A stretch of 64,000 bases of DNA from Candidatus Omnitrophota bacterium (GCA_021735445.1 JAIPHA010000001.1:24396-88395); one strand, 5' to 3'. Counted from the stretch's first letter, positions 3,595 to 60,629 are shown. The notes: a model not told the origin generated them from the letters alone. A program made the numbers and translations.

Positions 3595-3596
3595 AA

Positions 3597-7443: not shown

Positions 7444-7453
7444 CGAGGTTATT

Positions 7454-12969: not shown

Positions 12970-12984
12970 GCAGGGGTAAGACGT

Positions 12985-14490: not shown

Positions 14491-14504
14491 TAGTAGGAAC
14501 AATT

Positions 14505-14762
14505 ATGGAGATAGCAGAGATACAGAAGATTTTGAAAGATTTTATAATAGAATTATTAAATGAGAGAAATATACTAGATAATACCGCTCTTATTGAGTCT
14601 GGGTTAATAGATTCATTGAGCATAATTCATATTGTCTTGTTTATAGAATCCAGATTCTCTTGTAAGTTAAAGCCTTTTGATATTCAGATTGATGATTTTC
14701 AGACTATTAAAAAAATGGCTATAGTAGTTTTAAAAAAGATAGAGGCTAAAAAGTTAGATTAG
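14505..14762 (+). CDS. acyl/peptidyl carrier protein (DltC-like)
   Basis: 85 aa with the phosphopantetheine-attachment motif GLIDSLSII, located immediately downstream of the adenylating enzyme. Confidence 0.7.
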   Translation: MEIAEIQKILKDFIIELLNERNILDNTALIESGLIDSLSIIHIVLFIESRFSCKLKPFDIQIDDFQTIKKMAIVVLKKIEAKKLD

Positions 14763-17121: not shown

Positions 17122-18211
17122 AAAAAATATCCCTTGGTGGAAAACTGTTTTGGGACAAGAAGAGATAGAAGTAGTAAGGAAATCTATACTAAACCGAAAT
17201 ATTACCCAAGGAATTATTACTAAAGACTTTGAAAACCAATTGGCCGGTTTATTAGGTGTGCCTTATTTAGTTTTGGTAAATAGCGGCAGTTCTGCTCTTT
17301 TGGCCGCGTTAATTGCTTGCGGCATTGGGCCGGGAGATGAGGTTATTGTTCCCGGATTTACTTTTATCGCGACGGTTCAGGCTCCTTTAATTTTAGGGGC
17401 CAAAGTTAGACTGGTAGACGTTAAGCCCAACCGGCCGGTTATAGACGAAAACTCAATAGAAGCTGCAGTTAATTCAAAGACTAAAGCCATTATTCCGGTT
17501 CACCTGAATGGACGGGCGGCTAACCTGAAAAAAATCAATAAAATAGCTAAAAAATATAAAATATCGGTAATCGAAGATGCTGTTCAGGCCCTATGTTCTA
17601 AATGCAAAGGGGAGTTTTTAGGTACTCAATCAGACATTGGGGTGTTTTCTTTGGGGGTTACTAAATTTATCACTGCGGTTCAAGGAGGGTTTTTAGTTAC
17701 CAGAAAGAAAGATATTTTCAACAAGTTGCAAAAGATAAAAAATCATGGCTGCTTGTCTTTGGAAGGAGGGGTTTTGAAGTGTGAGACGCTAGGGTTTAAT
17801 TTTAAATTCAATGACCTCTTTGCCGGTATCGGCTTAAAACAACTAGAAAAAGTAAAAGATAAGATTAAATCATTTCAAAATATCTATAGTTTTTATAAAA
17901 AAGAACTTGTTTCGGTTAGTTGCATGGATTTGGTAGAGGTTAAGCAAGGAGAGGGTGAGCTTCCTCTGTGGATAGAGGTTATTAGTAAAAAAAGAGAAAA
18001 AGTTTTGCGCCTGTTAAAGCAAAAAAGGGTGGAGGCTAAGCCTTTTCATAAAAGTATTGGCGAAATTAGCTACATTAAGAATCGCAAAAAGCTCAAATAT
18101 TCTCAGTTTTATGCTAAAAAGGGATTGATTTTACCCAGCGGACCCGACCAGAAAAATAAAGATCTAAAGTATGTGATAAAGGCTATAAAAGAAATCGAAA
18201 AAGATTTATAA
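17114..18211 (+). CDS. DegT/DnrJ/EryC1-family PLP-dependent aminotransferase (perosamine-synthase-like)
   Basis: VIEDAVQAL and GVFSLGVTKFITAVQGG. I chose the ATG at 17114 (MNKKNIPWW), which overlaps the upstream stop, rather than the ORF-track start at 17087. Confidence 0.75.
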   Translation: MNKKNIPWWKTVLGQEEIEVVRKSILNRNITQGIITKDFENQLAGLLGVPYLVLVNSGSSALLAALIACGIGPGDEVIVPGFTFIATVQAPLILGAKVRLVDVKPNRPVIDENSIEAAVNSKTKAIIPVHLNGRAANLKKINKIAKKYKISVIEDAVQALCSKCKGEFLGTQSDIGVFSLGVTKFITAVQGGFLVTRKKDIFNKLQKIKNHGCLSLEGGVLKCETLGFNFKFNDLFAGIGLKQLEKVKDKIKSFQNIYSFYKKELVSVSCMDLVEVKQGEGELPLWIEVISKKREKVLRLLKQKRVEAKPFHKSIGEISYIKNRKKLKYSQFYAKKGLILPSGPDQKNKDLKYVIKAIKEIEKDL

Positions 18212-18236
18212 ATAGAGATAAAGAGGTGTCCTGAGT

Positions 18237-18734
18237 ATGGGGGTAGTGATTTTTAACAAAAAGAATATTTGTAAAATAAATAAAGAAGATATTAAAGACT
18301 TAAAAGAAAAAGCCAGACATGCAACAGACGGTAAAGCTAGGTTGTGCTTGCACAAAAGCAACGAAAACCTTTTGCATGAAATGATTATCGTTCTTAGAAA
18401 AGGTACGTATGTAAGGCCTCATGCGCATAAAAAAAAGACAGAGACTTTTCACCTTATTGAGGGGCGGGTTAAAGTTATAATATTTAAAGAATCAGGGTTA
18501 GTGAAAGATAGTTTGGTTATGGATAGTTTAGTCCAAAAAGGTGATTTTATCTGCAGGCTAGAAGAAGGGGTTTGGCATATGGTTATTCCGTTGTCTGATT
18601 TTTCCGTTTTCCATGAAGTAACCAATGGCCCTTACCTTGGCAAAGACGATAGCGTATTTGCCGGATGGGCCCCCTTTACTAAAGAAAAAGATAAAGTGAA
18701 GCTTTTTATGGAAGAGATATGCCGGTTAAAATAA
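18237..18734 (+). CDS. WbuC-like cupin-fold protein
   Basis: A small 165-aa protein with His-rich cupin motifs (LHKSNENLLHEMIIVLRKGTYVRPHAH...FHLIEGRVKV) in a sugar-aminotransferase context. Confidence 0.45.
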   Translation: MGVVIFNKKNICKINKEDIKDLKEKARHATDGKARLCLHKSNENLLHEMIIVLRKGTYVRPHAHKKKTETFHLIEGRVKVIIFKESGLVKDSLVMDSLVQKGDFICRLEEGVWHMVIPLSDFSVFHEVTNGPYLGKDDSVFAGWAPFTKEKDKVKLFMEEICRLK

Positions 18735-18741
18735 TTTTACA

Positions 18742-19821
18742 ATGAAAGGAATATATTCGTCTTTTAAAATATTTCATTATCCCGATAAGTTGAGCGATCT
18801 AGCCGGCGAGAAGGTATCTTCTCCTATCCATGTCAGGCTGAAGCCTACCAATAGGTGCAACCACAGGTGTAAATATTGTTGCTACAGAAACGAAAGTTTA
18901 TATTTAAGCCAACTGTTTAGTGAAAAAGACGAAACACCTTTGAATAAAATGAAACAAATTATAGATGATTTTAAATTTATCGGGGTAAAGGCGGTAACTA
19001 TCTCCGGAGGGGGAGAACCGTTGCTTTATCCACATTTGACAGAGATGGTGAGAAGGCTGTCAAAAAATAATATAAAAGTTGCTGTATTGACAAACGGCAG
19101 TTTGATGAATGGAGAAATTGCTGATGTTTTGGCAGAGGAAGCTAGCTGGGTCCGTATTTCAATGGATGCCGCCGATGCTGATAGTTATTCAAGGATAAGA
19201 AAAGTAAATTTAAAAGAATTTGATAAAGTTTGCAGCAATATATATGAGTTTGCAAAAAAACAAAACAAAAGATATCAACTTGGGATAAATTTTATTGTTA
19301 TGAGGGAAAACCATAAGGATGTTTATCAATTTTTGAAATTGATGAAAAAACTCGGAGTTAACCATGTTAAAGTTTCAGAATCTGTAATGAGCGTGGATAC
19401 GGAAGAAAACAGAAAATATCATTTTTCTATAATAAAATCCGTTAAGAGCCAAATCAAAAAAGCTATTACGGATTTGTCTAATAGCGGTTTTTCAATTATC
19501 GACAAAGTAGAAAATTTTAACAAAAAAGACGATAGTTACAACAAAACATATAACTGGTGCCCTTTTATCCAGTGTTTGACAGTTATTGGCGCAGATTTGA
19601 ATGTGTATAGTTGTCATGATAAAGCTTACACCAACAAAGGAAAATTAGGTTCTATTAAGAAAAAAAGTTTTAGAGATTTTTGGTTTAGCGATAAGGGCAA
19701 AGAAAAATTATTGAAATTAGATCCCAGCAAAGATTGTAATCACCATTGTACCCAACATGGCAAGAATTTAATGTTACTTGATTATTTTTGCCTGGATAAG
19801 AATCATTTAGATTTTATCTAA
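18742..19821 (+). CDS. radical SAM protein with SPASM/twitch-like C-terminus
   Basis: CNHRCKYC, ISGGGEPLL, and C-terminal cysteines WCPFIQC...YSCHD...CNHHC. Confidence 0.7.
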   Translation: MKGIYSSFKIFHYPDKLSDLAGEKVSSPIHVRLKPTNRCNHRCKYCCYRNESLYLSQLFSEKDETPLNKMKQIIDDFKFIGVKAVTISGGGEPLLYPHLTEMVRRLSKNNIKVAVLTNGSLMNGEIADVLAEEASWVRISMDAADADSYSRIRKVNLKEFDKVCSNIYEFAKKQNKRYQLGINFIVMRENHKDVYQFLKLMKKLGVNHVKVSESVMSVDTEENRKYHFSIIKSVKSQIKKAITDLSNSGFSIIDKVENFNKKDDSYNKTYNWCPFIQCLTVIGADLNVYSCHDKAYTNKGKLGSIKKKSFRDFWFSDKGKEKLLKLDPSKDCNHHCTQHGKNLMLLDYFCLDKNHLDFI

Positions 19822-19847
19822 ATTACTATAGAAAAGGGAGGTAGGTT

Positions 19848-20510
19848 GTGGCGTTTGTAGATTTCATTTCCCAGTTACATACAAAAACCAAGCGTAATTA
19901 CATAGAGAGGATGGCTAAATACGATAAGGCTCATTGCGCTCAAATAGCAAAAAAGCTTGATAAGGAGTATTGGGACGGAGAACGTAAATATGGTTACGGT
20001 GGTTATTATTATGATGGCAGGTGGAAGAAGGTAGCAGGGCAGATGAAGAAGCATTACAATTTATCTTCCGGGCAAAAAGTTTTAGATATAGGATGCGGGA
20101 AAGGATTTTTCCTTTATGATTTAAAATCCATTATGCCTGATATTGAAATCAGGGGGATAGATGTATCAGAATATGCTTTGACTCATGCCAAAGAAGAAGT
20201 AAAAGATTTTCTGGATTTAGGTTCGGCCTGCAACCTGCCGTATCCGGATAATTATTTTGATTTAGTGGTGTCGGTTAACACTTTGCATTATTTATATCTT
20301 AATGATTTAAAAAAAGCTTTAGAAGAAATATCAAGAGTTAGCAAAGGAGGTGGATATATAGTAGTAGAGTCTTACCGAAATGAAAAGGAAAAAGCAAATT
20401 TACTATGTTGGCAGCTAACTTGTGAGTGTTTTTTTACTCCGGGAGAATGGGAGTGGATTTTTTCTGAATTTGGATATAAGGGAGATTATTCATTTGTTTT
20501 TTTTGAATAA
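19848..20510 (+). CDS. class I SAM-dependent methyltransferase
   Basis: Motif I VLDIGCGKGFF. A GTG start is preceded by AAGGGAGG. Confidence 0.75.
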   Translation: MAFVDFISQLHTKTKRNYIERMAKYDKAHCAQIAKKLDKEYWDGERKYGYGGYYYDGRWKKVAGQMKKHYNLSSGQKVLDIGCGKGFFLYDLKSIMPDIEIRGIDVSEYALTHAKEEVKDFLDLGSACNLPYPDNYFDLVVSVNTLHYLYLNDLKKALEEISRVSKGGGYIVVESYRNEKEKANLLCWQLTCECFFTPGEWEWIFSEFGYKGDYSFVFFE

Positions 20511-20513
20511 AAT

Positions 20514-21566
20514 TTGATTATGAAATTTAGTGATTTACTATATTTTGGGCTGCAAATACCCCGGCTGCATTTACAACCATCTTTCCGGATTCCTTTAAGT
20601 ATGCATCTTGTGCTGACTAACCGCTGTAATAATCACTGCCTATATTGTAATACCCATAGTTTTCCGCAAGAGGATTTGCTTACTACAAAGTCGCTAAAAA
20701 ATATTTTATCCGAAATGAAAAAATGCGGTACCCGGCGTATTCAGTTTACAGGCGGGGAGCCGATGGTTAGGAAGGATATAGGAGCTTTGATAAATTTTGC
20801 CAAACAACTAGGTTTTTTTGTGGGGCTGTCTACTAACGGATATCAAATTGCTGAGCGAGTCGATGAATTAAAAGGTGTAGATATAGTTTTTCTTTCCTAT
20901 GACGGGCCGGGAGAAGCTCACATTTCCTTAAGGGGCCAATCCAGTTTGGGAGAGGTTTATGCTGCTTTAGGCGCTTTGAAAAAAGCCGGAATTAAAGCAT
21001 GGACTACGAGCGTTTTAACTAAAAAGAATAAAGATTATCTAGAGGATATTGTTGATTTCGCCAAAAAAAATAACATTTTAGCTAATTTTACGCGGTTAGA
21101 GTTTGTTTTAAAGAGAAGCCTTTCTCTTCATCCTTTTGTTGATAAAGTTAAAGAGTTAATCCTGTCTTTCGAAGAAAGAAGAGAAGTCTTTAGAAAATTA
21201 ATTGAATTGAAGGCCTCAGGAGGGCCGGTGGGCGATTCATTTCCATATTTAAAGAGTGTGCTAGAGTGGCCAGATAATAATCGTATAACAGATTCAGCGC
21301 CGGCTAAAAGGTATAAATGTTGGGCAGGGAAGGCTTATGGACATCTGGAAGCCGATGGTAAGCTATATTCTTGTGGGTGGGATTCTTTAAGGCAGGCTAA
21401 GGGCATAGACGTATTGGATAAGGGGTTTAAGTTTGCCTGGCAGAATTTAGTTTTTCCCAACAATTGCCGGTCATGTTCCCATGCTTGCGGAGTTGAGAAT
21501 AATCTTTTGTTTTCTTTGAATTATTCAAGCCTTTGGAATGCCTGCAAGAGTTTGAGAGGTAGTTAA
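20514..21566 (+). CDS. radical SAM/SPASM protein (paralog group with the 24578 and 25614 genes)
   Basis: CNNHCLYC, FTGGEPMV, and C-terminal CWAGK...YSCGW...NNCRSCSHACG. Confidence 0.75.
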   Translation: MIMKFSDLLYFGLQIPRLHLQPSFRIPLSMHLVLTNRCNNHCLYCNTHSFPQEDLLTTKSLKNILSEMKKCGTRRIQFTGGEPMVRKDIGALINFAKQLGFFVGLSTNGYQIAERVDELKGVDIVFLSYDGPGEAHISLRGQSSLGEVYAALGALKKAGIKAWTTSVLTKKNKDYLEDIVDFAKKNNILANFTRLEFVLKRSLSLHPFVDKVKELILSFEERREVFRKLIELKASGGPVGDSFPYLKSVLEWPDNNRITDSAPAKRYKCWAGKAYGHLEADGKLYSCGWDSLRQAKGIDVLDKGFKFAWQNLVFPNNCRSCSHACGVENNLLFSLNYSSLWNACKSLRGS

Positions 21567-21570
21567 AAAA

Positions 21571-23049
21571 ATGGGATTTTTATTTAAACACAGAAAAATA
21601 ATATTGGCCTGTATTATTTTGTTGGGCTTTGCTTTACGAATCTATTATATAAACACAAATGTTTGTTCAAACGATGACCCCCAGCATATTATAGCCGCAA
21701 GGCAGATTTCTTTAAATCCAAAAAATTTACAATTGCCTTTAGTCGACAAGCAAAAAGATAGCTGCCCGATGGGCATAAGGTATGTGATGCGTTTGGGGCT
21801 ATATCTTTTTGATAAACCGGTATTGGGAATAAAATTTCCCTGCATGCTTTTCCAGCTATTGGCTGTTTTTATGGTTTATTTTTTTGCAAAAAGATATTTT
21901 GGGATAGAGGTAGCTTTGCTTGCAGCTTTTTTGCTTTCTATAACCCAGTATAATATAGGGAATCCTTCTACAAACGGAGTTATGCATACTTTGACGATGA
22001 GTTATTTTTTGATTGTATTAAAGTCTATCGATGAAAATAAAAAAAAATGGTTATTATTATCTGGAGTTGTTTTAGGAATAGGTTTCTGGTTTAGGGAACA
22101 TGTCCCTTTAATCGCTTTAGCGGCTTTTTTGTTCCTGCTATTTTCAAAGGAAGATAGGCATTGGCTAAGGAGTAAATATCTCTGGTTTTCATTTGGTATA
22201 GCTTTTTTATTAGGGCTGCCTTTGCTTGTATCCAACTTCCGTCCGGAAATCAATCGGTTTGAATTTATATTAGAAGAATCCGCAATAGGGCCGAGTTTAA
22301 ATGCTATAGGAACTTATTTGGGAGAATTTATTTTACTGATTGTTAAACCTTTTCCCGAACTATTTCAACACGTAGCCAGCAGCCTGGACGCAGAGTATCC
22401 ACCGGTTAATTTTGTTCTAGGCGCGATCATATTAATATCGGTGGGATTGTCAGTAAAAAAAGCAAAGCCCGCGACTAGATTGTTGGTGACCTGCTTTTTG
22501 GTTAATTTCTTTTTGTTTAGCTTCATAAGGAGAAATGATGTTATTGAAAGTTTTTGGTCGTTGGGCAGCTTAGATTGGAGTGGTTTAGGTTTTACTTCAG
22601 GAATTATTTTAGCTGCCGATAGATTGATATATTGGAAAAATAAATACGGGATTCAAGCTAAAATCGCCATAGGATTAATAATTATTTTTACCTTGGCAAG
22701 AAGCTGGAGCTTTATTATTTTTCCCTTGAATGCGTATTTTCCCGTTAAGTATTACCGGGTAAAAATAGATAGTTTTGAAAATGCACAACATTTTCTTGAT
22801 AAGGGCTTAAGAAACGAATCTAAAAGGTTGCTTAGGGTTTTATGCCGGATATCAAAAAAAGGGACGCCTTATGCGGAACTTCATAGGCCAGCTGCCGCTA
22901 AGCTTGTTAAAATATTTTTAAAAGAAGGTCAATATAAAAAGGCGGGCAAGTACTTATACCGGATACTTAGCCGTAACCCTAACGATGCTTGGGCTTTATC
23001 CCTTATCGAAAAGCTTTCTTTTGCTAAAAAAGATTTTATTTGTGATTAA
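21571..23049 (+). CDS. GT-C membrane glycosyltransferase, PMT/ArnT-like (GT39/GT83-like), copy 1, with C-terminal TPR-like tail
   Basis: A polytopic N-terminus with the conserved first-loop segment ISLNPKNLQLPLVDK...RYVMRLGLYLFDKPVLGIKFP, and a helical C-terminus (YKKAGKYLYRILSRNPNDAWA). Confidence 0.55.
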   Translation: MGFLFKHRKIILACIILLGFALRIYYINTNVCSNDDPQHIIAARQISLNPKNLQLPLVDKQKDSCPMGIRYVMRLGLYLFDKPVLGIKFPCMLFQLLAVFMVYFFAKRYFGIEVALLAAFLLSITQYNIGNPSTNGVMHTLTMSYFLIVLKSIDENKKKWLLLSGVVLGIGFWFREHVPLIALAAFLFLLFSKEDRHWLRSKYLWFSFGIAFLLGLPLLVSNFRPEINRFEFILEESAIGPSLNAIGTYLGEFILLIVKPFPELFQHVASSLDAEYPPVNFVLGAIILISVGLSVKKAKPATRLLVTCFLVNFFLFSFIRRNDVIESFWSLGSLDWSGLGFTSGIILAADRLIYWKNKYGIQAKIAIGLIIIFTLARSWSFIIFPLNAYFPVKYYRVKIDSFENAQHFLDKGLRNESKRLLRVLCRISKKGTPYAELHRPAAAKLVKIFLKEGQYKKAGKYLYRILSRNPNDAWALSLIEKLSFAKKDFICD

Positions 23050-23064
23050 AATTAAAAAAAAGAA

Positions 23065-24568
23065 TATGTTTGACGAGAAATTATATAAATATAGAAAAGT
23101 AATATTATTATTCATTCTTCTTTTAGCTTTTGGGCTAAGGTTTTACGGAGCTTTGTCTATTCCGGCTCATGAAGATAATCTTATTCATGATTTTCCCTCT
23201 GCCCGCAAGATATCTTTAGAACCGGGAAATTTCAATATTCCTTTAGTTGAAACTATGGCCGAAAGCAGCGGTATGGGGTGGAAATATTTAATTCGAATAG
23301 GATGGTATCTTTTCGGCGATTCTTTAATAGGAGCAAGGCTTCCTTTTATTATTTTAGGCGTAGCTACTATTTTTTTAGTATATTTATTGGTAAATTATGG
23401 ATTAGGCAATTCGGTTGCTCTTTTTTCCTCTTTTCTCCTGGCTATCAGTTCTTATCATATTGGTTTAACCAGAAATGTAGATGATGTATCGGTTGGTTGC
23501 TTTTTTGCGTTAGGTTCTTTGTTTTTGTTGTATCAAGCGGTTCAAAAGTCAAAGCCAAAACTGCTTTTAGTTAATGGCTTGCTTATAGGGTTGTCGTTAT
23601 GGTTTAAAGAAATCAATATTTTTCTTATTCCTATTACGATTATTTTTCTTTACAGTTTGCCTCAATACAAAGGTTGGTTAAAAAATGGCTATCTCTGGTT
23701 GTCATTCTTTTTAGCTTGTATGGTAGCTTTGCCTTTAATTGTGCTAAATCTTAATCCAGAAGTTACCAGGTTTAATTATATAATGAATCAGGCGGATTTC
23801 GGCTTAAGTATAAATGCTATAGGGTTTTACCTGGGAGAATTGATATTGTTGGCTCTTAAGCCTTTTCCTGATTTGTTTAGTAAGATTGCGGTAACCGTTG
23901 ACGAAGCCCGCCCGTTTGTAAATTTTTTATTAGGAGGGGTAATTTTAGCATCGGTAGTTTTTTCATTTAGAGATAGACGGCCTTTTATCAGATTATTATT
24001 AGTGACTTTTTTATTCAATTTTGCCGTATTTAGCATTATTAGCCATATCGATAAAAGTTCTTGGTATTGGACTATGGAAAGTTCTGATTGGAGTGCTATG
24101 AGTTTTATTCCCGGAGTTATTTTAGCCGCCAATATGCTTATTGTTTTTTTAAGAAAATACAAAATCAAAGCTGCTCTATTATCAGGGGTGTTGTTATTTT
24201 TTGTGTTTATTCGTAGCTGGGCTATAGTTACCTATCCTTTAAATTATTATTTTCCGACAAGAGATTTTTACATTAAAAGATTTTTGCTGGAAGATGATAG
24301 CTGGATGGTAAAAAGTGATTTTATAAACGAAGCAAACGTTAATAAAATAAAAAAGACGAAAAAAGATGTTTTGAAACGAATTTATGATTTTTATGATCAG
24401 AATTATTTTTATAAAAGAATTTCTTCTTTTAAACTTGCTCAAATGATGATTGAAGAAAAGAGATTTAATGAGGCAAAAAAATATATCTATACGATGCTCT
24501 ATCTTAATCCTTGCGATAAAAAGGCGCGCAGGCTTTTAGAAACAATTAATAATCAAGGCGGATTTTAG
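23065..24568 (+). CDS. GT-C membrane glycosyltransferase, PMT/ArnT-like, copy 2
   Basis: ISLEPGNFNIPLVETMAESSGMGWKYLIRIGWYLFGDSLIGARLPF is paralogous to copies 1 and 3. I chose the ATG at 23065 (MFDEKLY) over the ORF-track start at 22985, which would overlap the upstream gene by 65 nt. Confidence 0.55.
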
Positions 24569-24577
24569 TTGGCAGCG

Positions 24578-25582
24578 ATGAAGTTTTTCAACAAGATAGA
24601 TACCGTTGGGAAAGTTTTAAAGGCGATAGCATTTAAAAAAAGGTTTCCTTTAGTAGCTACCTGGAATATTACTTATAAGTGCAACTTGCATTGTGGTTAT
24701 TGCGGCGCGCCCCAGTGCCGGATTCCTGAATTAGAAACAGCTAAGGTGTTAGGGGTTATCGATGAGTTAAAAAGCCTGGGGACTAGATTTATGAAATTTA
24801 GCGGGGGAGAGCCTTTATTAAGGGATGACTTTCCAGAGATTATAGATTTTTGTAAATCCAGGGGAATGGATGTGTTGATAAACTCAAATGGGGTTGTTTT
24901 TAAAGATAAATTCAGATTAGTTAAAAATAATATAGACGAGGTCCAATTTAGCCTGGATGGAGAAAAAGAGGTCCACGATAAGATAAGAGGCCAAGGCGTA
25001 TACGATAAAGTTATAGAGTCGATTGAATTATGTAAAATCCATAATATAAATGTATTTTTAAACACAGTGATATCTAAATATAACCTTAACAGCATTGACC
25101 ATATTTTGAAAATAACTAATAAGTATAATATTGGTGTTTATTTTCAACCGGCCGACCAACTTTATTCAACACATAGCAATAAAGACATACACTCTTTATT
25201 TAGCCCTAAGGAGAAAGATTACAAGCAAATAATAAAATTGATTATGACGGAAAAGAAAAAAGGCAATAAATCTATTTCTAATAGTTTAACAGGCCTTAAC
25301 CATCTCTATAAATGGCCGGCTCCCGTTAAAGTGTATTGTTTGGAATATTTATTGGGATGCTTGATAGAGCCGGATGGGAGTGTTTTTGTTTGTAATATGT
25401 TTGCTGATTATCAAAAATACCTGGTTCCTTTTTATGGTAATTTCAGGGATTCCTATAGGCAGGTAAAGCTGCCTCATGTTTGCAATTGTTGTTACTGCGG
25501 GAGCGAGGTAGAACTCCAGCTGCTAAAAAAAATGGACCCTAAAGCCATGTGGGGTATCTGGAGTAGATTTAGCCGGCAGTAA
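24578..25582 (+). CDS. radical SAM/SPASM protein (tandem paralog A)
   Basis: CNLHCGYC, FSGGEPLL, and C-terminal CLEY...VFVCNMF...CNCCYCG. I chose the ATG at 24578 over the TTG at 24569. Confidence 0.75.
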   Translation: MKFFNKIDTVGKVLKAIAFKKRFPLVATWNITYKCNLHCGYCGAPQCRIPELETAKVLGVIDELKSLGTRFMKFSGGEPLLRDDFPEIIDFCKSRGMDVLINSNGVVFKDKFRLVKNNIDEVQFSLDGEKEVHDKIRGQGVYDKVIESIELCKIHNINVFLNTVISKYNLNSIDHILKITNKYNIGVYFQPADQLYSTHSNKDIHSLFSPKEKDYKQIIKLIMTEKKKGNKSISNSLTGLNHLYKWPAPVKVYCLEYLLGCLIEPDGSVFVCNMFADYQKYLVPFYGNFRDSYRQVKLPHVCNCCYCGSEVELQLLKKMDPKAMWGIWSRFSRQ

Positions 25583-25613
25583 TATTTTGTTTGCCCCAAG
25601 GTATTTATAAAAT

Positions 25614-26606
25614 ATGAAATTATCAGAAAAAATTAGTATTTTTAACAAAATTGCACAAGCTGTTTTGTTTAAGAAAAAATACCCTTTAATAGCTGCTTGG
25701 AATATTACCTATAGATGTAACTGCGCTTGCAAATATTGCGGAATTAAAAGGGATAAAGATAAACGGGAAAAGCTTAATACCGGCGAAGTATTTGCGATAA
25801 TTAATCAATTATCTCAAGCCGGAGTTAAATTTATTAACTTTGGCGGCGGAGAACCTTTGATCAGAGATGATTTTGAAGAGATCCTAGATTACTGTAACCA
25901 GAAAAAAATTTATGTGGGAGTGATATCTAACGGTATATTAGCCGGTAAAAAAATTAAGGTATTAGAAAAGGTTAATAAGGTTCAATTAAGTTTAGATGGG
26001 CCCAGAGAAATAAATGATTTTGTGAGAGGCAAGGGGGTTTATGATAAAGTTATTGAAACGATTAACCTCTGTAAGAGAAATAATATCCGGGTAGGGCTGA
26101 TTACTGTAATATCGAAATATAATGTTGCCGATATTGCCGCTATTGTTGATATTTCTAAGCAATACGGAGTAGAGATGCATGTTCAGCCAGCGACTTCTAA
26201 TCTTTCTGGCGACAGCAAAAAAGATGTTTTGGAATCACCCTTAGAAGAAGACTATAAAAATGCGCTTCAGTATTTAATAGATGAAAAAAGAAAAGGCAAC
26301 CATTTAATTAACCATAGCATCTCCGGATTAAAACACATGTATGATTGGCCTAAAGCCAGGAAGATAAACTGTTTTGCAAGTTTATTATTTTTTAATATAG
26401 AGCCGGATGGGAGGATTTTTGTATGTAATATGTTTCCGGAATATCAAAAATATTTAATTCCGCTAGGGGATAATTTCAAAGAAACCTTTTATAAATTAAA
26501 ATTACCTCATTGTTGCAGTTGTTGTTGGAATAGTTCCATGGTTGAGTTTAATTTAATGGGAAATCTTAGGGTACCTTCTTTTTTAGAAATAGCAAAGAAA
26601 TTATAA
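25614..26606 (+). CDS. radical SAM/SPASM protein (tandem paralog B)
   Basis: CNCACKYC, FGGGEPLI, and C-terminal CFAS...IFVCNMF...CCSCCWN. It is colinear with the 24578 gene along its whole length. Confidence 0.75.
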   Translation: MKLSEKISIFNKIAQAVLFKKKYPLIAAWNITYRCNCACKYCGIKRDKDKREKLNTGEVFAIINQLSQAGVKFINFGGGEPLIRDDFEEILDYCNQKKIYVGVISNGILAGKKIKVLEKVNKVQLSLDGPREINDFVRGKGVYDKVIETINLCKRNNIRVGLITVISKYNVADIAAIVDISKQYGVEMHVQPATSNLSGDSKKDVLESPLEEDYKNALQYLIDEKRKGNHLINHSISGLKHMYDWPKARKINCFASLLFFNIEPDGRIFVCNMFPEYQKYLIPLGDNFKETFYKLKLPHCCSCCWNSSMVEFNLMGNLRVPSFLEIAKKL

Positions 26607-26629
26607 AAAGCTAATTTGGATTTATTTTT

Positions 26630-28042
26630 ATGCATAAGTGGTTATATAGATACAGAAGGCCGTTAATTTTATTTTTTTTGCTTGTTGCCTTTGCCCTGCG
26701 TTATTACGGCGCTGTCTCGATTCCTCCTGTCTGGGATGAGGTTTATAATGAATTTCCCGACGCCAGGCGTATCTCTTTTTCTAAAGGCAATATCAATATT
26801 CCCATTGTTGATACTACTCCCGAAGGAGGGGTTATGTTACCTAAATATGTAATATATTTAGGTTGGACGATTTTTGGTAATTCTCTTATTGGCGCCAGGT
26901 TGCCGTTTATCCTCAGCGGCGTTTTCCTTGTTTTATTAATATACCTAATCGTTAAAAAATATATAGGGATAGAAGCTGCTCTTATAAGCGCTTTATTGGC
27001 TTCAATAAGCCAGTATTGCGTTGGCGCCTCCCGTTGGTCTGACTCTCAATCCTTAAGCATGATTATCGCCCTTGTTTCATTATTTGTTTTTTACCGGGCT
27101 CTTCTTGATTCGAATAAATATATGATTTTATTAAACGGGCTGCTTATCGGGATAGCTTGTTGGTTTTATGAGAATCTAATTTTTTTAATTCCGATTTATA
27201 TAATATTTTTACTAGTATGCCCTAAATACCGGAGTTGGCTTAAAAGCAAATATTTGTGGTGGTCTTTTGTTATTGCTCTTTTTGCCGCGGCTCCTTTGGT
27301 TGTAATGACTTTGAATTCAGGCGCTGAGAGGTTTAAATACATTTACGCAGAGACAGCCGTGGGGTTAAGCCTTAATGCTATCGGACTGTATTTAGGTGAA
27401 TTGATATTATTAGTTATTAAAAATTTCCCTGATTTATTTGAATTTGTAGCCAAAAGCCTTGATTCAGAGGCCCCCCCGGCTAATTTTTTATTTGGCATTA
27501 TTATACTGGTTTCTGTTGTAAGGTCGTTTAAGAGCAAGCAACCTTTCATTAGGTTATTGGTAGTCTGGTTTATGTTTAATTTTATTGTGTTTAGTTTTTT
27601 AAGAAGAAATGACGTTATTCAAAGCATTTGGTCTTTAGGAAGCCTTGACTGGGGTAGTTTGGGGTTTATGGCTGGATTGATATTAGCTGCTAATCAATTG
27701 TATCTAATCGCTAAGAAAAAAGATAAACGGGGGGCAGCGATATTTATAATATTAGTTACTTTCATCTTGTTTAAAACATGGGATTTTGTCAGTTACCCGC
27801 TTAACAGTTATTTTCCGGTTAGAGAATATTTACTTAAAACGGCGCATTTTGGTGATGTTGCTTACTTAAAGAGTGCCGGGAAAACAGAGGATGCCAAGGA
27901 GATACTGAAAAGAATATATAAGCTTGCTAAAAATAAGAGAACTAAATACAGGGCTGCCTGGGAATTAGCGAATATTTTAAAAAGTGAAGGTAAAAATCAA
28001 GAAGCAGAAGAATACCTGTCTATTATCCAAAGAGGCAGTTAA
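26630..28042 (+). CDS. GT-C membrane glycosyltransferase, PMT/ArnT-like, copy 3
   Basis: ISFSKGNINIPIVDTTPEGGVMLPKYVIYLGWTIFGNSLIGARLPF, colinear with copies 1 and 2. Confidence 0.55.
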   Translation: MHKWLYRYRRPLILFFLLVAFALRYYGAVSIPPVWDEVYNEFPDARRISFSKGNINIPIVDTTPEGGVMLPKYVIYLGWTIFGNSLIGARLPFILSGVFLVLLIYLIVKKYIGIEAALISALLASISQYCVGASRWSDSQSLSMIIALVSLFVFYRALLDSNKYMILLNGLLIGIACWFYENLIFLIPIYIIFLLVCPKYRSWLKSKYLWWSFVIALFAAAPLVVMTLNSGAERFKYIYAETAVGLSLNAIGLYLGELILLVIKNFPDLFEFVAKSLDSEAPPANFLFGIIILVSVVRSFKSKQPFIRLLVVWFMFNFIVFSFLRRNDVIQSIWSLGSLDWGSLGFMAGLILAANQLYLIAKKKDKRGAAIFIILVTFILFKTWDFVSYPLNSYFPVREYLLKTAHFGDVAYLKSAGKTEDAKEILKRIYKLAKNKRTKYRAAWELANILKSEGKNQEAEEYLSIIQRGS

Positions 28043-28048
28043 AAAAAA

Positions 28049-29128
28049 ATGAAAGTTTTCCGGCGTCAATACTCTTTAAAAGAATTACTAATTTTTAAAA
28101 AATCATTAGTAAAGCTGCTTTTGAACCCTAAAAAAATAATTAATTTTATAATGGTTCAGGTGTCGCGTGTTTTTAAACTTAAAAAATGCTTGGGGCTGCC
28201 TTTTAATGTTTTAATAGAGCCTATTGCCGAATGTAATTATCAATGTATAAAGTGTGAAAAATTTTCCGATGTTTATAGAAATGACGGCCCTAAAGGCGGC
28301 ATTAAAGCTATGAATATTTTATTATACCGCAAGATCATTGATGAGATAGGAGATACTTTAATTTCGCTGCGCCTTTGGAATCAAGGGGAGCCATTAATGA
28401 ATGGTGCTATTTTTGAGATGATTAAATACGCCAAAAAGAAGGATGTCGTAGTCGCTGTAAGTTCTAACTTAGCGCTTTTGACCCAAGATAGGGCAAAAAG
28501 CATAGTTCAATCAGGATTAGATTATTTAATTGTTTCTTTTGACGGAGCTACCCGACAAAGCTATAAATTCCATCATGGCATTGATTGTTTCAAGAGAGTT
28601 TTAGATAATATCAGAATGATAGTTGATTTTAAGAAAAAAACAAATTCTTTTCTTCCCCTGATCGAGCTTCAGTTTATCGTTATGAAGGAAAACGAAAAAG
28701 ATATTAATAAAATGGCAGAAATAGCAAAAGAGTTGCATTTAGATAAGCTCACTTTTTTAAGGTTAGATACAACTTATATTAATTTTAACAAGTTTAAAAA
28801 TATTTCTTCTAAAAAGGATCTATTGCCGGATAACCGAAATTACAGGCTTGATATGGGTAAGATTAATGCTTTAAAAAGATGCAGGATTGCCTGGGAAGAA
28901 ACCTTAATCCGTTATTCGGGGTTGGTTTTGCCTTGCGCTACAGATTTAGGCCAAAAGCATAAGCTGGGCAGAGTATCTGAAAATGGAAAATATTTAGGAT
29001 TTAAGAAGTTATGGAATAATCATAACTACCAAAAATTCCGGCAAGAAGCCGGAAGCAAGGCGGATATCTGCCACAATTGCGCTAAAAGGGATAATAACAT
29101 CAAAGACCAAATAATTTTTAACAAGTAA
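28049..29128 (+). CDS. radical SAM protein with SPASM/twitch-like C-terminus
   Basis: CNYQCIKC, WNQGEPLM, and C-terminal CRIAW...LPCATD...CHNCAKRD. Confidence 0.65.
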   Translation: MKVFRRQYSLKELLIFKKSLVKLLLNPKKIINFIMVQVSRVFKLKKCLGLPFNVLIEPIAECNYQCIKCEKFSDVYRNDGPKGGIKAMNILLYRKIIDEIGDTLISLRLWNQGEPLMNGAIFEMIKYAKKKDVVVAVSSNLALLTQDRAKSIVQSGLDYLIVSFDGATRQSYKFHHGIDCFKRVLDNIRMIVDFKKKTNSFLPLIELQFIVMKENEKDINKMAEIAKELHLDKLTFLRLDTTYINFNKFKNISSKKDLLPDNRNYRLDMGKINALKRCRIAWEETLIRYSGLVLPCATDLGQKHKLGRVSENGKYLGFKKLWNNHNYQKFRQEAGSKADICHNCAKRDNNIKDQIIFNK

Positions 29129-29138
29129 CATTATTAAA

Positions 29139-30584
29139 ATGAAAAAGATGGATAAAGATTTAGTAGGCCTTATTTTAGCTGCGGGAAGGAGTGAGAGGTT
29201 TTCTTGTGTTGGCAGAGATAAACCGAAGGTGCTCTTTAAGGTAGGGGGACGCAGATTATTGTTAAGAAATATTGAATTAATGCGGGATCAATTAAATATA
29301 AAATACATATATATTGTTGTCGGTTATGGCAAAGAGTCGATAATCAATTTGTGTGGCAAGGGGGATAAATTAGGGGTATCAATTAATTATATTGTAAATA
29401 ACAATTTATCAAAAGGGCTGGCCTATGGATTGTTTTTGCTTAAAGAGTATGTTAATAAACCTTTTTGTGTGTTGTTGGGGGATGAATTTTATTATCGCTC
29501 TAACCATGCAAAGCTAGTTGATTTTTTAGGAGATAATTTTTTAGGGATATGCGGGGTAAAAAAGCAGGCAGAAGAAAGGTTGATAAAAAAGAATTACTCT
29601 GTTGAAATAAAAAATAACAGGATTGATGCGCTTAGCGAAAAGCCACCTATAGTCAAAAATGACTATTTAGGCTGCGGAACTTTTTTATTTTCTCCGAAAA
29701 TATTTTTTTATATCGAAAAAGCCTTGAAGTTCAAGGTAGCCAAAAAGATTGAAATTGCCGATGTCTTAAATCTAGCGGCTCAGGAAGGGGAAATAATTTA
29801 TCCTTTTTTTATCAAGGGAGAATATGTTAATGTTAATAGCTTAGGTGATTTAAACAGCGCAAAACAAATCGTAAGGGGCAGAAAACATCAAAGCAGTAAG
29901 GTGAGCTTAATCATTCCCGCAGATAATGAGGCTGAAGCTATCGGGGCCGTTTTAGATGATTTTAAAGATAAAGTTGATGAAATAATAGTAGCGGATAATA
30001 ATTCTCTGGATAATACTGCCAGCATCGCAAAAGACAAGGGGGCTTGTGTATTTACCAATAACTATAGCGGATATGGCGCGGCGCTAAAGTTTGCCGCTCA
30101 AAAAGCCTCCGGCGATATTTTAGTATTTGTAGAAGCAGATGGTTCGTTTCGGTCTTATGATTTAGAGAAGATTTTAAAATGCCTTAAAAATTATGATATG
30201 GTGATTGGGACAAGGACTGCTAAGGCGGTTAGCATGAATATTTTTTTAAGATATGGAAATATCCTGATGGCAAGATTGGTAAAATTTTTGTGGAAAAAGC
30301 ATTTTCCGCCCCGACTTTCGGATGTCGGTTGTACCTATAGAGCCATATGGAAAAGTTCATATTTAGAAATATCTTCTGATTTAAAAACAGATGGGCCCGA
30401 ATTTTCTTTAGAAATGATGATTGAATCGATAAAAAATAGTTTTAAAATAAGAGAAATCCCCGTGAGTTATTTCGAGAGGCAGGGAGGAGTTTCTAAGCAT
30501 TCAAAGAATTTACTCGGGGTTATAAAAACGGCGATGAGGATGTTAAGGGTAATAGGCTTGAAAAAGATTAAACTTTTTAGATGA
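29139..30584 (+). CDS. bifunctional fusion: N-terminal sugar-phosphate nucleotidyltransferase-like domain and C-terminal GT2 glycosyltransferase
   Basis: N-terminal GLILAAGRSERF...KPKVLF (NTP-transferase G-x-G-x-R loop) and C-terminal VSLIIPADNEAEAI...IIVADNNSLDNT...GYGAALK (GT2 / Dpm1-like). Confidence 0.55.
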   Translation: MKKMDKDLVGLILAAGRSERFSCVGRDKPKVLFKVGGRRLLLRNIELMRDQLNIKYIYIVVGYGKESIINLCGKGDKLGVSINYIVNNNLSKGLAYGLFLLKEYVNKPFCVLLGDEFYYRSNHAKLVDFLGDNFLGICGVKKQAEERLIKKNYSVEIKNNRIDALSEKPPIVKNDYLGCGTFLFSPKIFFYIEKALKFKVAKKIEIADVLNLAAQEGEIIYPFFIKGEYVNVNSLGDLNSAKQIVRGRKHQSSKVSLIIPADNEAEAIGAVLDDFKDKVDEIIVADNNSLDNTASIAKDKGACVFTNNYSGYGAALKFAAQKASGDILVFVEADGSFRSYDLEKILKCLKNYDMVIGTRTAKAVSMNIFLRYGNILMARLVKFLWKKHFPPRLSDVGCTYRAIWKSSYLEISSDLKTDGPEFSLEMMIESIKNSFKIREIPVSYFERQGGVSKHSKNLLGVIKTAMRMLRVIGLKKIKLFR

Positions 30585-31936
30585 ATTCATTTATCCTAAA
30601 TTTAGAGAATTTGTGGCAAGACAGCGTAGCTATAATGCTAAGGTGGTTTATTGAAACTTATGATGCTGAATATTGGATTCCGGTGCTGATAAATGTTTAT
30701 AACAGTATTTTTGAAAGAATATTGTTATTTACCGGAATTTTTACGGTATGGACGGTTTATTTTTTCATTATAAGAAAGAATTCCCGCAGGATTAAAAATA
30801 TTATTGTTTTATATATTATTTTTTTATTTTTATCGGGCGGGATAATTTATTTTTCGGATATAAAATATTTTGTAGAAATTTTTCTTTTTAACGCTGTTTT
30901 TTATATATTTTTATCTTTTCCTATAAAAAAAACCAGTTTTTTATTAAATACTTTGCGGATTATTTTTATTTTTTTTCTTTCTGGGCTAATTGCTTTTAGC
31001 GCTTATCCATTGCCGCCTAAGGCGGTTCCTGAAATTAATTATAAAGCAAATGTTAGGAAGATAGCGGATGGGGATTTTTCTAAAATAGAACCAGATTGGG
31101 CCAAAAAAAGATTATTTATCTCTGGTTTTGAACAGCCGACTTTGCTTGAATACAACCCTAAACAGCAGAGTCTTGATAAAATACCGGCGCTTAAAACCGG
31201 TTATGCTCAATATCATAAGATAAATCAGAAAAAAAGGGAAATTTATCTCTATAATAAAGAGATTAAGAAGCTGGTAGTCTTTGACTTAGACACTTTTTCT
31301 CTAAAAAGGATGTCTTCGCCTATTCCGATGGCTGTTGGCGATAATTTTATTGAGTATGACAATAAAAATGAGCTTATATTTATCGAATCAGAGATGAATA
31401 AAAAAGGAGGGTATAAATTTGCAGCTTTAAATATGAGTAGCTTAGAAGTCGAGAAAAGATTTGATATCAATGGCTATTTATTGATGAATCCCGAAAAAGA
31501 CAAGCTGTACGCTTATAGCTACTTTTGGCTTAAAAACCCCTGCTTTTATCTGCTTGATACAGATAAATTAGAAATTGTAAAAAGAAAAAAAATAACAATG
31601 CCTATTTTAGAGTATGTTGTTTCAAATAAGTATAAAAAAATATATTGTAGTTCTCCTTTTGCCAGAAAAATAATAATTTTAGATATAGTTAGCTTAAATA
31701 GAATTGGTGTTATCAAAATACCGTTTGGGATGAGAATATTAACTATTGATAAAAAAAGAAACCTTCTTTTTGTGGGGGGGTTTTTAGACGGTAAAGTTCA
31801 TATGATTGATATCAAGACAAAAAAAACGTTAAAACGGTACAATGTGGGATTTTGGTTAAGAGATTTTTGCCTGGATTCAAAAAAAAGGATTCTGTATGTA
31901 GTTGGTAAATATGGGCTGTATCAAATTAATTATTAA
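30581..31936 (+). CDS. membrane-anchored protein with C-terminal beta-propeller-like (YVTN-type) repeats
   Basis: About four N-terminal TM helices, then repeated about 40-aa units (KLYAYSY..., KIYCSSPFARKIIILDI..., LLFVGGFLDGKVHMIDI..., ILYVVGKYGLYQI). Confidence 0.35.
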   Translation: MNSFILNLENLWQDSVAIMLRWFIETYDAEYWIPVLINVYNSIFERILLFTGIFTVWTVYFFIIRKNSRRIKNIIVLYIIFLFLSGGIIYFSDIKYFVEIFLFNAVFYIFLSFPIKKTSFLLNTLRIIFIFFLSGLIAFSAYPLPPKAVPEINYKANVRKIADGDFSKIEPDWAKKRLFISGFEQPTLLEYNPKQQSLDKIPALKTGYAQYHKINQKKREIYLYNKEIKKLVVFDLDTFSLKRMSSPIPMAVGDNFIEYDNKNELIFIESEMNKKGGYKFAALNMSSLEVEKRFDINGYLLMNPEKDKLYAYSYFWLKNPCFYLLDTDKLEIVKRKKITMPILEYVVSNKYKKIYCSSPFARKIIILDIVSLNRIGVIKIPFGMRILTIDKKRNLLFVGGFLDGKVHMIDIKTKKTLKRYNVGFWLRDFCLDSKKRILYVVGKYGLYQINY

Positions 31937-31980
31937 AATATTTTTCTAACCAGGGTTTAGATATTAAGGAGTTAAGGTAG

Positions 31981-32901
31981 GTGGCAATTGCAAAGAAAGG
32001 TTTGAATTATAAAGCGGCGTTAAGAGTTGTTTTTTCTGTTTCGATAACTTTTATTATCTTTTTTTTGATTTTTAGAAATGTTGATATAAAAGCGGTCAAA
32101 AGTTCGATAAGCAGGGCGGATTTATATCTTTTTTTGCTTGCGGCAATACTTTCTGTAATCGAGGCAGTTTTTTTAGCTTCTTTTAGGTGGAGGCTAATGT
32201 TAAGGAGGCTGGGTTATAAAATCGGCTTTAAAGAAGCTTTGGTTGTTGTGATCGGCTCAGAACCGGTTGGGAACTTTTTCCCTTTAAAAACCGGAGAATT
32301 TTTTAAAGTTTTATACCTAAGGCGTGCCCGGGGGGTTCCTGTAGCAAAAACTACGCTACTTGTTTTATGTGAACAGTTGTTGAATTTCTTGTCTTTATTT
32401 ATCTTTGTCATTTTAGGCGGGATTTTATCTCTTAAAGCGTTATTGTTTAACTTTTTTTTGATAAATACACCGATAGATAAAAGCGGCCTGAGGGGCAAGG
32501 CTAAAACTATCTGTAAAAAAATATCTAATTTTTTTAAAATAGAATACACAAACGCTATTAAGATATTTCAAGATAAGCAGATAATATTTTATTCTTTTTT
32601 GATATTTGCATTTGAATTGTTCATTGTCTACCTGTTAGCGGAATCTTTAGGGATATTTATCCCGGCGGTAAATATATTAGTTTTTGTCCCCTTGGTGGTG
32701 ATAGTAAGCAGCCTGCCTTTTACGGTTGCCGGTACGGGGATAAGAGAAGTTTCTCTATTGTTTTTTTTCGCTCAATTCGGTTCTCCGGAGGCTTTGCTGT
32801 CGCTAGGTTTATTGTATTCATTCGTTGAATATCTATTGCCTTTATTGATGGGCTTGTTATGGGTGGGCCGGTTCTGGAGAGGGATAGTTTTTAAAGATTA
32901 G
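31981..32901 (+). CDS. polytopic membrane protein, UPF0104/LPG-synthase-TM-like ('flippase-like') candidate
   Basis: 306 aa with about 8 TM helices and a GTG start after AAGGAG. Proteins of this type are commonly found next to GT2 genes, but no diagnostic motif was verified. Confidence 0.3.
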   Translation: MAIAKKGLNYKAALRVVFSVSITFIIFFLIFRNVDIKAVKSSISRADLYLFLLAAILSVIEAVFLASFRWRLMLRRLGYKIGFKEALVVVIGSEPVGNFFPLKTGEFFKVLYLRRARGVPVAKTTLLVLCEQLLNFLSLFIFVILGGILSLKALLFNFFLINTPIDKSGLRGKAKTICKKISNFFKIEYTNAIKIFQDKQIIFYSFLIFAFELFIVYLLAESLGIFIPAVNILVFVPLVVIVSSLPFTVAGTGIREVSLLFFFAQFGSPEALLSLGLLYSFVEYLLPLLMGLLWVGRFWRGIVFKD

Positions 32902-32930
32902 GCGCTAAAGATAAGGGTGGTTTTAAGAGA

Positions 32931-35667: not shown

Positions 35668-35696
35668 CGATTATACCTTAAAATGGGTGGTAAAAA

Positions 35697-36326: not shown

Positions 36327-36333
36327 TGATTTT

Positions 36334-39666: not shown

Positions 39667-39672
39667 TCGATT

Positions 39673-42378: not shown

Positions 42379-42431
42379 TATTTTTAATCATTTTAATGAA
42401 ATGGAAACACTTGTCAACCAAGACTAGGTTA

Positions 42432-56378: not shown

Positions 56379-56411
56379 TTTAAACTAATCTGTATTAAGA
56401 GGAGTTATCAG

Positions 56412-59150: not shown

Positions 59151-59159
59151 TAAACAATT

Positions 59160-60617: not shown

Positions 60618-60629
60618 AATGGTTTATCT

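Follow-up and report, generated by a model that had tools for sequence, protein, structure and literature searches.

A radical SAM-rich gene cassette in a Candidatus Omnitrophota glycan island, probably devoted to tailoring an amino sugar for transfer at the cell surface

The described systems nearest to the locus reported here are GtrA/GtrB/GtrC of O-antigen, CsbB(GtlA)/GtcA/YfhO(GtlB) of teichoic acids, and ArnB/ArnC/ArnE-F/ArnT of lipid A, and three-component systems of a GT2 glycosyltransferase, a flippase, and a GT-C glycosyltransferase are established (PMC5836110, PMC8035078, PMC7389260). In this study, we analyzed a 64-kb stretch of DNA from a Candidatus Omnitrophota bacterium (hereafter, the window) and, within it, positions 20514-29128, where four intact radical S-adenosylmethionine (rSAM) genes and three full-length paralogous GT-C genes lie together on the + strand. 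We consider it fairly probable that these genes are part of a surface-glycan cassette, typical of Omnitrophota, in which the rSAM enzymes tailor a nucleotide-activated amino sugar that is delivered in lipid-linked form and transferred outside the membrane by the GT-C enzymes.

The cassette resembles the Arn, Gtr, and YfhO systems in bringing together, in one cluster, DegT aminotransferases (compare ArnB), a candidate GT2 of the polyprenyl-phosphate type, a flippase candidate, and both ArnT-like and YfhO-like GT-Cs. It departs from them in its flippase candidate, which is MprF-TM-like rather than of the GtrA/GtcA or ArnE/F type; in the fusion of its GT2 to a nucleotidyltransferase; in having up to three GT-C paralogs, drawn from a small, dedicated subfamily whose members end in a TPR-like tail; and in a sugar-tailoring front end of 5-8 rSAM genes, which to our knowledge has no counterpart in the Gtr, Gtl, or Arn systems. 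The cassette is best read as an Omnitrophota-specific system of the Arn/Gtr/YfhO type with an exceptionally rSAM-rich front end, and a literature search found no description of it.

The seven genes are separated by gaps of 0-31 bp, below the 50 bp given in a preliminary description of this DNA, and gene calls and Pfam matches bear out the order that it proposed. An rSAM gene of the rS350 type (20514-21566, 350 residues; Radical_SAM 2.5e-24), with a CX3CX2C motif, a C-terminal Cys motif, and no Pfam SPASM match, is followed by GT-C paralog 1 (21571-23049, 492 residues, with a short helical TPR-like tail; PMT_2 9.4e-23) and GT-C paralog 2 (23066-24568, 500 residues; PMT_2 1.6e-19). The longest open reading frame (ORF) of paralog 2 begins at 22985, and its probable start, Met 23066, was taken from the family alignment, where the homologs begin. 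Two twitch-like rSAM genes of the rS330 type come next, both without a SPASM match: copy a (24569-25582, with an ATG at 24578; 337 residues; Radical_SAM 1.2e-23) and copy b (25614-26606, 330 residues; Radical_SAM above cutoff). GT-C paralog 3 (26630-28042, 470 residues; PMT_2 2.2e-18) and an rSAM-SPASM gene of a separate lineage (28049-29128, 359 residues; SPASM 7.7e-10, Radical_SAM 1.2e-8) complete the series. Given the domain matches, the paralog identities, and the tight gaps, this physical arrangement is real and far beyond chance. It is not self-contained: the seven genes are embedded in a glycan island of more than 60 kb, and the window carries at least 18 rSAM domains. For comparison, ten related loci of ~21 kb, mostly from Omnitrophota and all metagenomic, were typed against the window proteins, and nine of them were tabulated for counts; the methyltransferase encoded at 19848 served as a marker in searching for the cassette. 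These loci are referred to below by L numbers.

The three GT-C proteins are colinear paralogs over their full length, with 36-45% identity in all-against-all BLASTP (E 1e-99 to 1e-134); paralog 1 is 36-39% identical to the other two, and paralogs 2 and 3 share 45%. These values agree with the colinearity first proposed and contradict the possibility, raised along with it, that the similarity is spurious (below 20% identity). The companion possibility, that the proteins are unrelated transporters, is contradicted by PMT_2 (PF13231) scores of 81.6, 71.1, and 67.4 bits for the ORFs at 21571, 22985, and 26630, against a cutoff of 26.1, and by the fold. An AlphaFold model of 26630 (predicted local distance difference test, pLDDT, 91.5; predicted template-modeling score, pTM, 0.91) matches STT3, AglB, PglB, ArnT, Pmt4, and ALG9 in a Foldseek search of the PDB (E 3e-6 to 4e-4, probability 1.00), and the three proteins are therefore GT-C glycosyltransferases and not transporters. 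Emb structures are also among the fold matches (E 0.009-0.09), ranking below STT3, ArnT, and Pmt4. The fold search alone succeeded in this respect: a sequence search with the GT-C against PDB chains gave no match, and none of the three has an above-cutoff NCBIfam family.

In GT-C enzymes, a catalytic Asp lies close behind the first transmembrane helix. When 26 subfamily members were aligned, 18 positions proved invariant, every one of which is kept in all three paralogs. Only one acidic residue of the first loop is among them, D36 (26630 numbering), which sits a few residues past the first transmembrane helix in the context VWDEVY (HEDNL in paralog 2, SNDDP in paralog 1). We regard D36 as the putative catalytic acidic residue. 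It lies ~24 residues upstream of the D/E that ends the segment I-S-L/F...I/L-P-L/I-V-D/E, which the preliminary description had singled out and which is indeed found in all three paralogs. That terminal D/E, there taken for the catalytic base, is not conserved, with G, V, N, or K at this position among the 26 members, and the assignment of the base to the D/E of I-P-x-V-D/E was dropped because the residue varies across the family.

The C-terminal tail of the GT-Cs, initially described as TPR-like, is helical, with about five helices in the AlphaFold model of 26630, and its TPR identity is weak, with Pfam TPR matches below threshold (E 0.003-0.007). The sidedness of the tail was read off the sequence as a positive-inside loop pattern, since it is not computable from the model. 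A metagenomic homolog, P0105 (989 residues), is a GT-C of this subfamily fused C-terminally to an LVIVD-repeat beta-propeller; the positive-inside pattern, this fusion, and general knowledge of LVIVD repeats suggest that the tail may be extracytoplasmic. A separate LVIVD-like protein follows the GT-C and a class-III aminotransferase (AT3) in L001, and the window has a weak YncE beta-propeller match at 30581-31936; together with P0105, these suggest that the GT-Cs may have a beta-propeller partner.

The subfamily is small. The 26630 protein is 100% identical to an NCBI GT39 protein (P0001) of a 'Candidatus Omnitrophica bacterium' metagenome-assembled genome, and a word-indexed search with it returned only 24 relatives, all metagenomic or from Omnitrophota. 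A profile search of 1.84 billion cluster representatives gave 24,796 PMT_2-type proteins at E<=1e-3 and 124 at E<=1e-30, with ~25 full-length members of this subfamily. In a neighbor-joining tree (no bootstrap), the window's three GT-Cs fall on different branches, 26630 with P0002 (59% identity) and 21571 with P0007; because two of the paralogs have closer relatives in other genomes than in the window, the duplications are old. Two further GT-C-type membrane proteins, a weakly YfhO-like one of 970 residues (4531-7443) and a PMT_2 protein of 756 residues (43268-45538, minus strand), bring the GT-C candidates in the window to five.

All four rSAM proteins match PF04055 above cutoff, and their CX3CX2C motifs read CNNHCLYC, CNLHCGYC, CNCACKYC, and CNYQCIKC. 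The proteins at 24569 and 25614 share 46% identity, and each aligns with the full length of 20514 at 26-28% identity (E 1e-30, BLASTP), in keeping with the earlier view of three mutually colinear rSAMs that include a tandem duplication at 24578 and 25614. Colinearity does not extend to the 28049 protein, which among the window's proteins is closest to 1641 (28%). The label rSAM-SPASM, originally extended to the whole set, holds for 28049, the only one with a Pfam SPASM domain (PF13186), and not for 20514, 24569, and 25614, which have no SPASM match at E<=0.01. In an alignment of 39 sequences of the 330-residue rSAM family (~50 members at >38% identity, the source-named ones mostly from Omnitrophota), the CX3CX2C triad is invariant, as are C253, C271, and C301, and at least 90% of the sequences have C304. 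The extra cysteines form a CX12GX4C element and a CxxC, only four as against the seven of SPASM, a pattern that fits one putative auxiliary cluster of the twitch-like kind in 20514, 24569, and 25614 rather than a full SPASM domain.

The AlphaFold model of 25614 (pLDDT 90.1) is closest in fold, by two methods, to the twitch-type rSAM BlsE (PDB 7vob; PMC3715490), with a Foldseek E of 4.8e-14 and a template-modeling score (TM) of 0.72 over 326 columns. Sequence identity to BlsE is only 15-16%, and the rS330 genes lie in a glycan cluster whereas BlsE belongs to a nucleoside antibiotic cluster. No rSAM has an above-cutoff NCBIfam family. For the BlsE family (TIGR04466, cutoff 400), 20514 scores 41.7 bits; the family is listed for 20514, 8721, and 1641 (40-52 bits), whereas the 25 best NCBIfam matches listed for 24569 and for 25614 do not include it. 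For the DesII family (TIGR04426), the searches gave no equivalog-level match, nor was DesII the closest fold.

The genes on either side of 20514-29128 set these enzymes in a sugar context, which across the window includes three DegT proteins, a short-chain dehydrogenase/reductase (SDR), WbuC, a glycosylphosphotransferase, Wzx, GT2/GT4 genes, and Wzm/Wzt. Upstream, in the same + strand run, the SDR gene (14896) precedes two DegT aminotransferase genes, DegT1 (15883-17121; Pfam DegT 3.8e-69) and DegT2 (17087-18211; Pfam DegT 1.4e-78), whose NCBIfam matches are PseC/ArnB/DesI-like. After them come a WbuC-family cupin (18237-18734; WbuC 140 bits against a cutoff of 42), an rSAM of 359 residues (18742-19821; Pfam), and a highly conserved methyltransferase of 220 residues (19848-20510; Pfam), all on the + strand. 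Downstream, also on the + strand, a nucleotidyltransferase-GT2 fusion, a candidate of the polyprenyl-phosphate glycosyltransferase type (29139-30584; NTP_transferase and Glycos_transf_2), has a GT2 half whose NCBIfam matches are all below cutoff (AglJ 1.2e-31, Dol-P-hexose transferase 1e-22, PpgS 9e-15, ArnC 6e-7) and a PDB sequence match to Dol-P-Man synthase 5mlz (E 3e-6). Beyond it and the beta-propeller-like protein at 30581 lie a flippase-like membrane protein (31981-32901; LPG_synthase_TM, Pfam 6.2e-36; TIGR00374, 67 bits against a cutoff of 43), whose family L004 and L010 also encode downstream of their GT-Cs, and AT3 (34273-35667; Aminotran_3 2.2e-77), which comes directly after the GT-C in L001, L007, and L011. 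AT3 is 67-72% identical across loci, unusually conserved compared with the cassette's rSAMs and GT-Cs. A B12-type rSAM and a polyprenyl-phosphate glycosylphosphotransferase are also encoded downstream, and elsewhere the island encodes Wzx, GT2/GT4 proteins, the 756-residue PMT_2 protein, and Wzm/Wzt.

The methyltransferase used as the marker reaches far beyond Omnitrophota. It is found at 55-79% identity in at least 559 genomes of many phyla, among them Planctomycetota, Verrucomicrobiota, Chlamydiota, Elusimicrobiota, and Acidobacteriota, and further hosts include Alphaproteobacteria (with Azospirillum aestuarii), Schlesneria sp., Clostridia, and Bifidobacteriaceae. In the best 80 loci, its commonest neighbors are the transketolase halves (48/80 and 52/80), DegT (24), WbuC (19), and SDR (16). 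The methyltransferase looks like the mark of a widespread, uncharacterized sugar-tailoring module. Neither the methyltransferase nor the 970-residue YfhO-like protein has an above-cutoff NCBIfam family.

Gene content recurs between the related loci, while gene order is fluid. Across the nine tabulated loci, GT-C copies range from 0 to 3 and rSAMs from 3 to 8 with no 1:1 scaling: the GT-C and rSAM numbers are 1 and 7 in L001, 1 and 3 in L003, 3 and 8 in L004, 0 and 4 in L006, 1 and 5 in L007, 2 and 6 in L009, 2 and 8 in L010, 1 and 7 in L011, and 0 and 3 in L013. The simplest locus, L007 (Omnitrophota GCA_028716965.1), has a single GT-C and the order TK-N, TK-C (the transketolase halves), YfhO, GT2, SPASM, DegT1, rS330, DegT2, WbuC, rS359, methyltransferase, rS350, SPASM, GT-C, AT3. 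An rS330 gene stands immediately after the DegT1 ortholog in 6/6 Omnitrophota-type loci, and in L001, L004, L007, and L011 it lies between the orthologs of 15883 and 17087; in the window, DegT1 directly adjoins DegT2, and the two rS330 genes are found 7 kb downstream, among the GT-Cs. The order WbuC-rSAM359-methyltransferase is kept in L001, L004, L007, L009, L010, and L011, with an extra rSAM before the methyltransferase in L001, and orthologs of 20514 (57-62% identity) come immediately after the methyltransferase in L001, L004, L007, L010, and L011. The adjacency that recurs is methyltransferase-rS350-(SPASM)-GT-C. The more distant L006, L008, and L013 keep the rSAM set and have no GT-C of this subfamily within 10 kb.

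We propose one pathway in which a large set of cytoplasmic tailoring enzymes supplies a single lipid-linked donor system and the number of GT-Cs varies by lineage, an arrangement that fits the gene counts. The analysis shows the domain identities, the paralogy, the GT-C fold, the recurrence of gene content, and the variation in order; we infer every substrate, reaction type, and acceptor in what follows. In the cytoplasm, the nucleotidyltransferase half of 29139 would make a nucleotide-activated hexose, which the SDR (14896) would process. DegT 15883 would then aminate the sugar, and the twitch-like rSAMs 24569/25614 would act next, by radical elimination or oxidation next to the new amine or hydroxyl (compare DesII, BlsE, and BtrN), to give a keto intermediate that DegT 17087 would aminate in turn. 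It is the DegT-rSAM-DegT sandwich of the related loci that suggests a keto intermediate made by rS330 for the second amination. Each of the three model enzymes offers a precedent: DesII converts a 4-amino sugar nucleotide into a 3-keto sugar by deamination (PMC11434129), BtrN oxidizes an aminocyclitol to a ketone between two transaminations (PMC13598754), and the substrate of BlsE is the sugar nucleoside cytosylglucuronic acid of blasticidin S biosynthesis (PMC3715490). The related loci are also like the DesI/DesII/DesV set of TDP-desosamine (PMC11434129) in their DegT-rSAM-DegT order with a methyltransferase downstream, the shared logic being that an amine is introduced, a radical elimination leads to a ketone, and a second amination and a methylation follow. 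Further tailoring may be carried out by the WbuC cupin, rSAM 18742, methyltransferase 19848, rSAM 20514, the SPASM rSAM 28049, and the split transketolase.

The finished sugar would be loaded on polyprenyl phosphate by the C-terminal GT2 half of 29139, by the GT2 at 9824, or by both, and the flippase-like protein at 31981 would carry the lipid-linked sugar across the membrane. The three GT-C paralogs would then transfer it to extracytoplasmic acceptors by means of the Asp that is invariant in their first outer loop, each paralog probably with its own acceptor or position, and the most likely acceptor would be the polymer that the island's Wzx- and Wzm/Wzt-dependent genes build. A more specific form of this reading is possible, and we put it forward tentatively: the cassette may make an undescribed amino sugar using 5-8 rSAMs of the twitch, SPASM, and B12 types together with the split transketolase and the pan-bacterial methyltransferase, with the GT-C subfamily delivering it by way of a polyprenyl-phosphate carrier and the GT-C paralogs diversifying its placement on the cell surface. 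Five to eight rSAMs for one sugar would exceed any sugar pathway known to us.

The preliminary description had instead proposed a modular assembly line, in which each rSAM partners one GT-C and each pair adds one radical-modified sugar. The genes do alternate in the window, all seven are intact, and L009 (DegT1-rS330-GTC-DegT2-GTC) likewise has its GT-Cs scattered among rS330 and DegT genes. An rSAM of the SPASM type also adjoins a GT-C in the window and in L001, L004, L007, and L010: orthologs of 28049 (49-53% identity) do so in L001 and L007, weaker best matches to it (23%) do so in L004, and the SPASM rSAM beside the GT-C pair of L010 was typed as 28049-like. The modular scheme is nonetheless unsupported, since rSAM and GT-C numbers do not rise together as adjacent pairs: GT-C:rSAM ratios run from 1:7, 1:5, and 1:7 (L001, L007, L011) through 2:6 and 2:8 (L009, L010) to 3:8 (L004), and three loci keep the rSAM set without a nearby GT-C of the subfamily. 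Moreover, rS330 follows DegT1 and rS350 follows the methyltransferase, not the GT-C. As rSAMs are cytoplasmic Fe-S proteins and GT-C catalysis is extracytoplasmic, a physical rSAM-GT-C pair would also be topologically awkward. Because order is fluid, counts are unmatched, and rS330 sits behind DegT1 elsewhere, the interleaving in the window is a local rearrangement, through GT-C duplication and relocation of the rS330 pair, and not a module; the assembly line itself strikes us as highly improbable. What stands of the original idea is that the GT-Cs are glycosyltransferases and that the rSAMs sit, with no precursor peptide, in a glycan context; the scheme of one sugar per module does not stand.

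Alternatively, a protein or peptide, and not a sugar, could be the substrate of the rSAMs, at the least of the SPASM enzyme, for instance where a surface protein or an enzyme's cofactor or active site is matured in the manner of anSME; the GT-Cs would then O-glycosylate that protein as PMT/TMTC enzymes do. Peptide-modifying rSAMs (SkfB, anSME, SuiB) are indeed close structural neighbors of rS330, but both methods rank BlsE, which acts on a sugar nucleoside, as the closest structure, and the genes conserved alongside encode sugar-nucleotide enzymes (DegT, SDR, WbuC, nucleotidyltransferase, GT2). Features of ribosomally synthesized and post-translationally modified peptides (RiPPs) were also missing. 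A small-ORF scan of the intergenic gaps found no precursor-peptide-sized ORF outside the genes of 20514-29128, as noted from the start, and ORFs in the window's few other gaps look like noise; Pfam searches of all the rSAMs returned only Radical_SAM, Fer4_12, and SPASM, with no RRE/PqqD domain, and found no peptidase among the cluster proteins; and the single ABC transporter belongs to the glycan-exporting ABC-2 (Wzm/Wzt) type. This gene context fits a glycan role, and not a peptide role, for the rSAMs, and we judge peptide modification quite unlikely here. A third possibility concerns the GT-Cs, which might act like EmbC/EmbA/EmbB or Aft and build a periplasmic homopolymer, or branch stepwise, from one polyprenyl-phosphate sugar instead of decorating a polymer already made. 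Emb enzymes use a polyprenyl-phosphate sugar outside the membrane, and the window shares with mycobacterial embC-embA-embB three tandem paralogous GT-Cs of related fold; that the paralogs fall on different tree branches, with orthologs elsewhere, suggests long-standing specialization. Emb proteins are, however, ~1,050-1,090 residues long with large periplasmic carbohydrate-binding domains, whereas the GT-Cs here have 470-500 residues and a short helical tail, and their copy number is 0-3 among related genomes. The single GT-C of L001, L003, L007, and L011 would not sustain multi-step polymerization, polymer export routes of the Wzx and ABC types are already encoded in the island, and STT3, ArnT, and Pmt4 are better fold matches than Emb. 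An Emb-like role is, on this balance, unlikely.

Several observations weigh against the amino-sugar pathway that we favor. The structural neighbors of 25614 after BlsE are SkfB (23.5), anSME (22.2), SuiB, MoaA, and viperin, with DesII only 10th and BtrN 17th; since SkfB, anSME, and SuiB rank just below BlsE, the rS330 fold alone is no proof of a sugar substrate. As no enzyme reaches an NCBIfam equivalog cutoff, the proposed substrates rest on family-level resemblance. On the delivery side, no obvious membrane anchor is seen in the GT2 domains, the flippase-like protein retains only 28% identity from locus to locus, and Pfam scans of the window proteins reported no small flippase of the GtrA/GtcA type. 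The recurrent placement of a SPASM rSAM beside a GT-C, described above, could mean that the two are functionally linked in a direct way, for which the pathway offers no explanation.

Few sugar-acting rSAMs have been characterized (DesII, BtrN, AprD4, BlsE, and a handful more), mostly from antibiotic pathways. The main value of the cassette lies in its being a source of new radical carbohydrate chemistry, as it offers a compact candidate set for such chemistry under anaerobic conditions, with 5-8 rSAMs that are probably wired to lipid-linked extracytoplasmic transfer. Omnitrophota are tiny, largely uncultured, and apparently host-dependent bacteria whose surface presumably mediates cell contact, and the cassette points to an unusual sugar on that surface. 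For annotation, it is also a clear example of SPASM/twitch rSAMs that it would be wrong to label as RiPP maturases.

The wider window (GC content ~35%) has an unbroken series of + strand genes from 27 to 36326, a minus-strand block at 36334-45538, and then a further + strand block. Promoter and terminator scans of 18000-37000 gave hits at chance level only and are therefore uninformative on operon structure, and searching the whole window for Rfam families and tRNAs gave no hits. At its upstream end, and all on the + strand with Pfam support, the cassette includes the split transketolase (2731-4538), the YfhO-like GT-C of 970 residues (4531-7443), a DegT gene (7454), an rSAM-SPASM gene (8721), and a GT2 gene (9824-10561); these upstream cassette genes (2731-10561) co-occur in L003, L007, L009, and L013. 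A GT9 gene and two rSAM genes also lie upstream of 20514-29128. Between these genes and the SDR, the block at 12139-14762 encodes a PEP-mutase/isocitrate-lyase-superfamily protein, an AMP-binding ligase, and an 85-residue carrier-protein-like ORF. The best match of the first is methylisocitrate lyase, below cutoff, and the block hints at a possible decoration of the acyl or phosphonate type.

The 1126-residue Wzt-like ATPase of the ABC type (46489-49869) is matched by ABC_tran over its first ~160 residues only, and its C-terminal extension has no Pfam match at E<=0.001. Downstream of the Wzm/Wzt and B12-rSAM genes, the window ends in a series of giant multi-rSAM genes (52119-64000). The first (52119-56378) encodes 1419 residues with three rSAM and three SPASM domains, and the second (56412-59150) a protein of 912 residues with two rSAM domains. 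The tail after 60618, which had seemed free of ORFs, is a long ORF (60630-64000, at least 1127 residues) that begins with a CxxxCxxC motif and runs off the end of the window.

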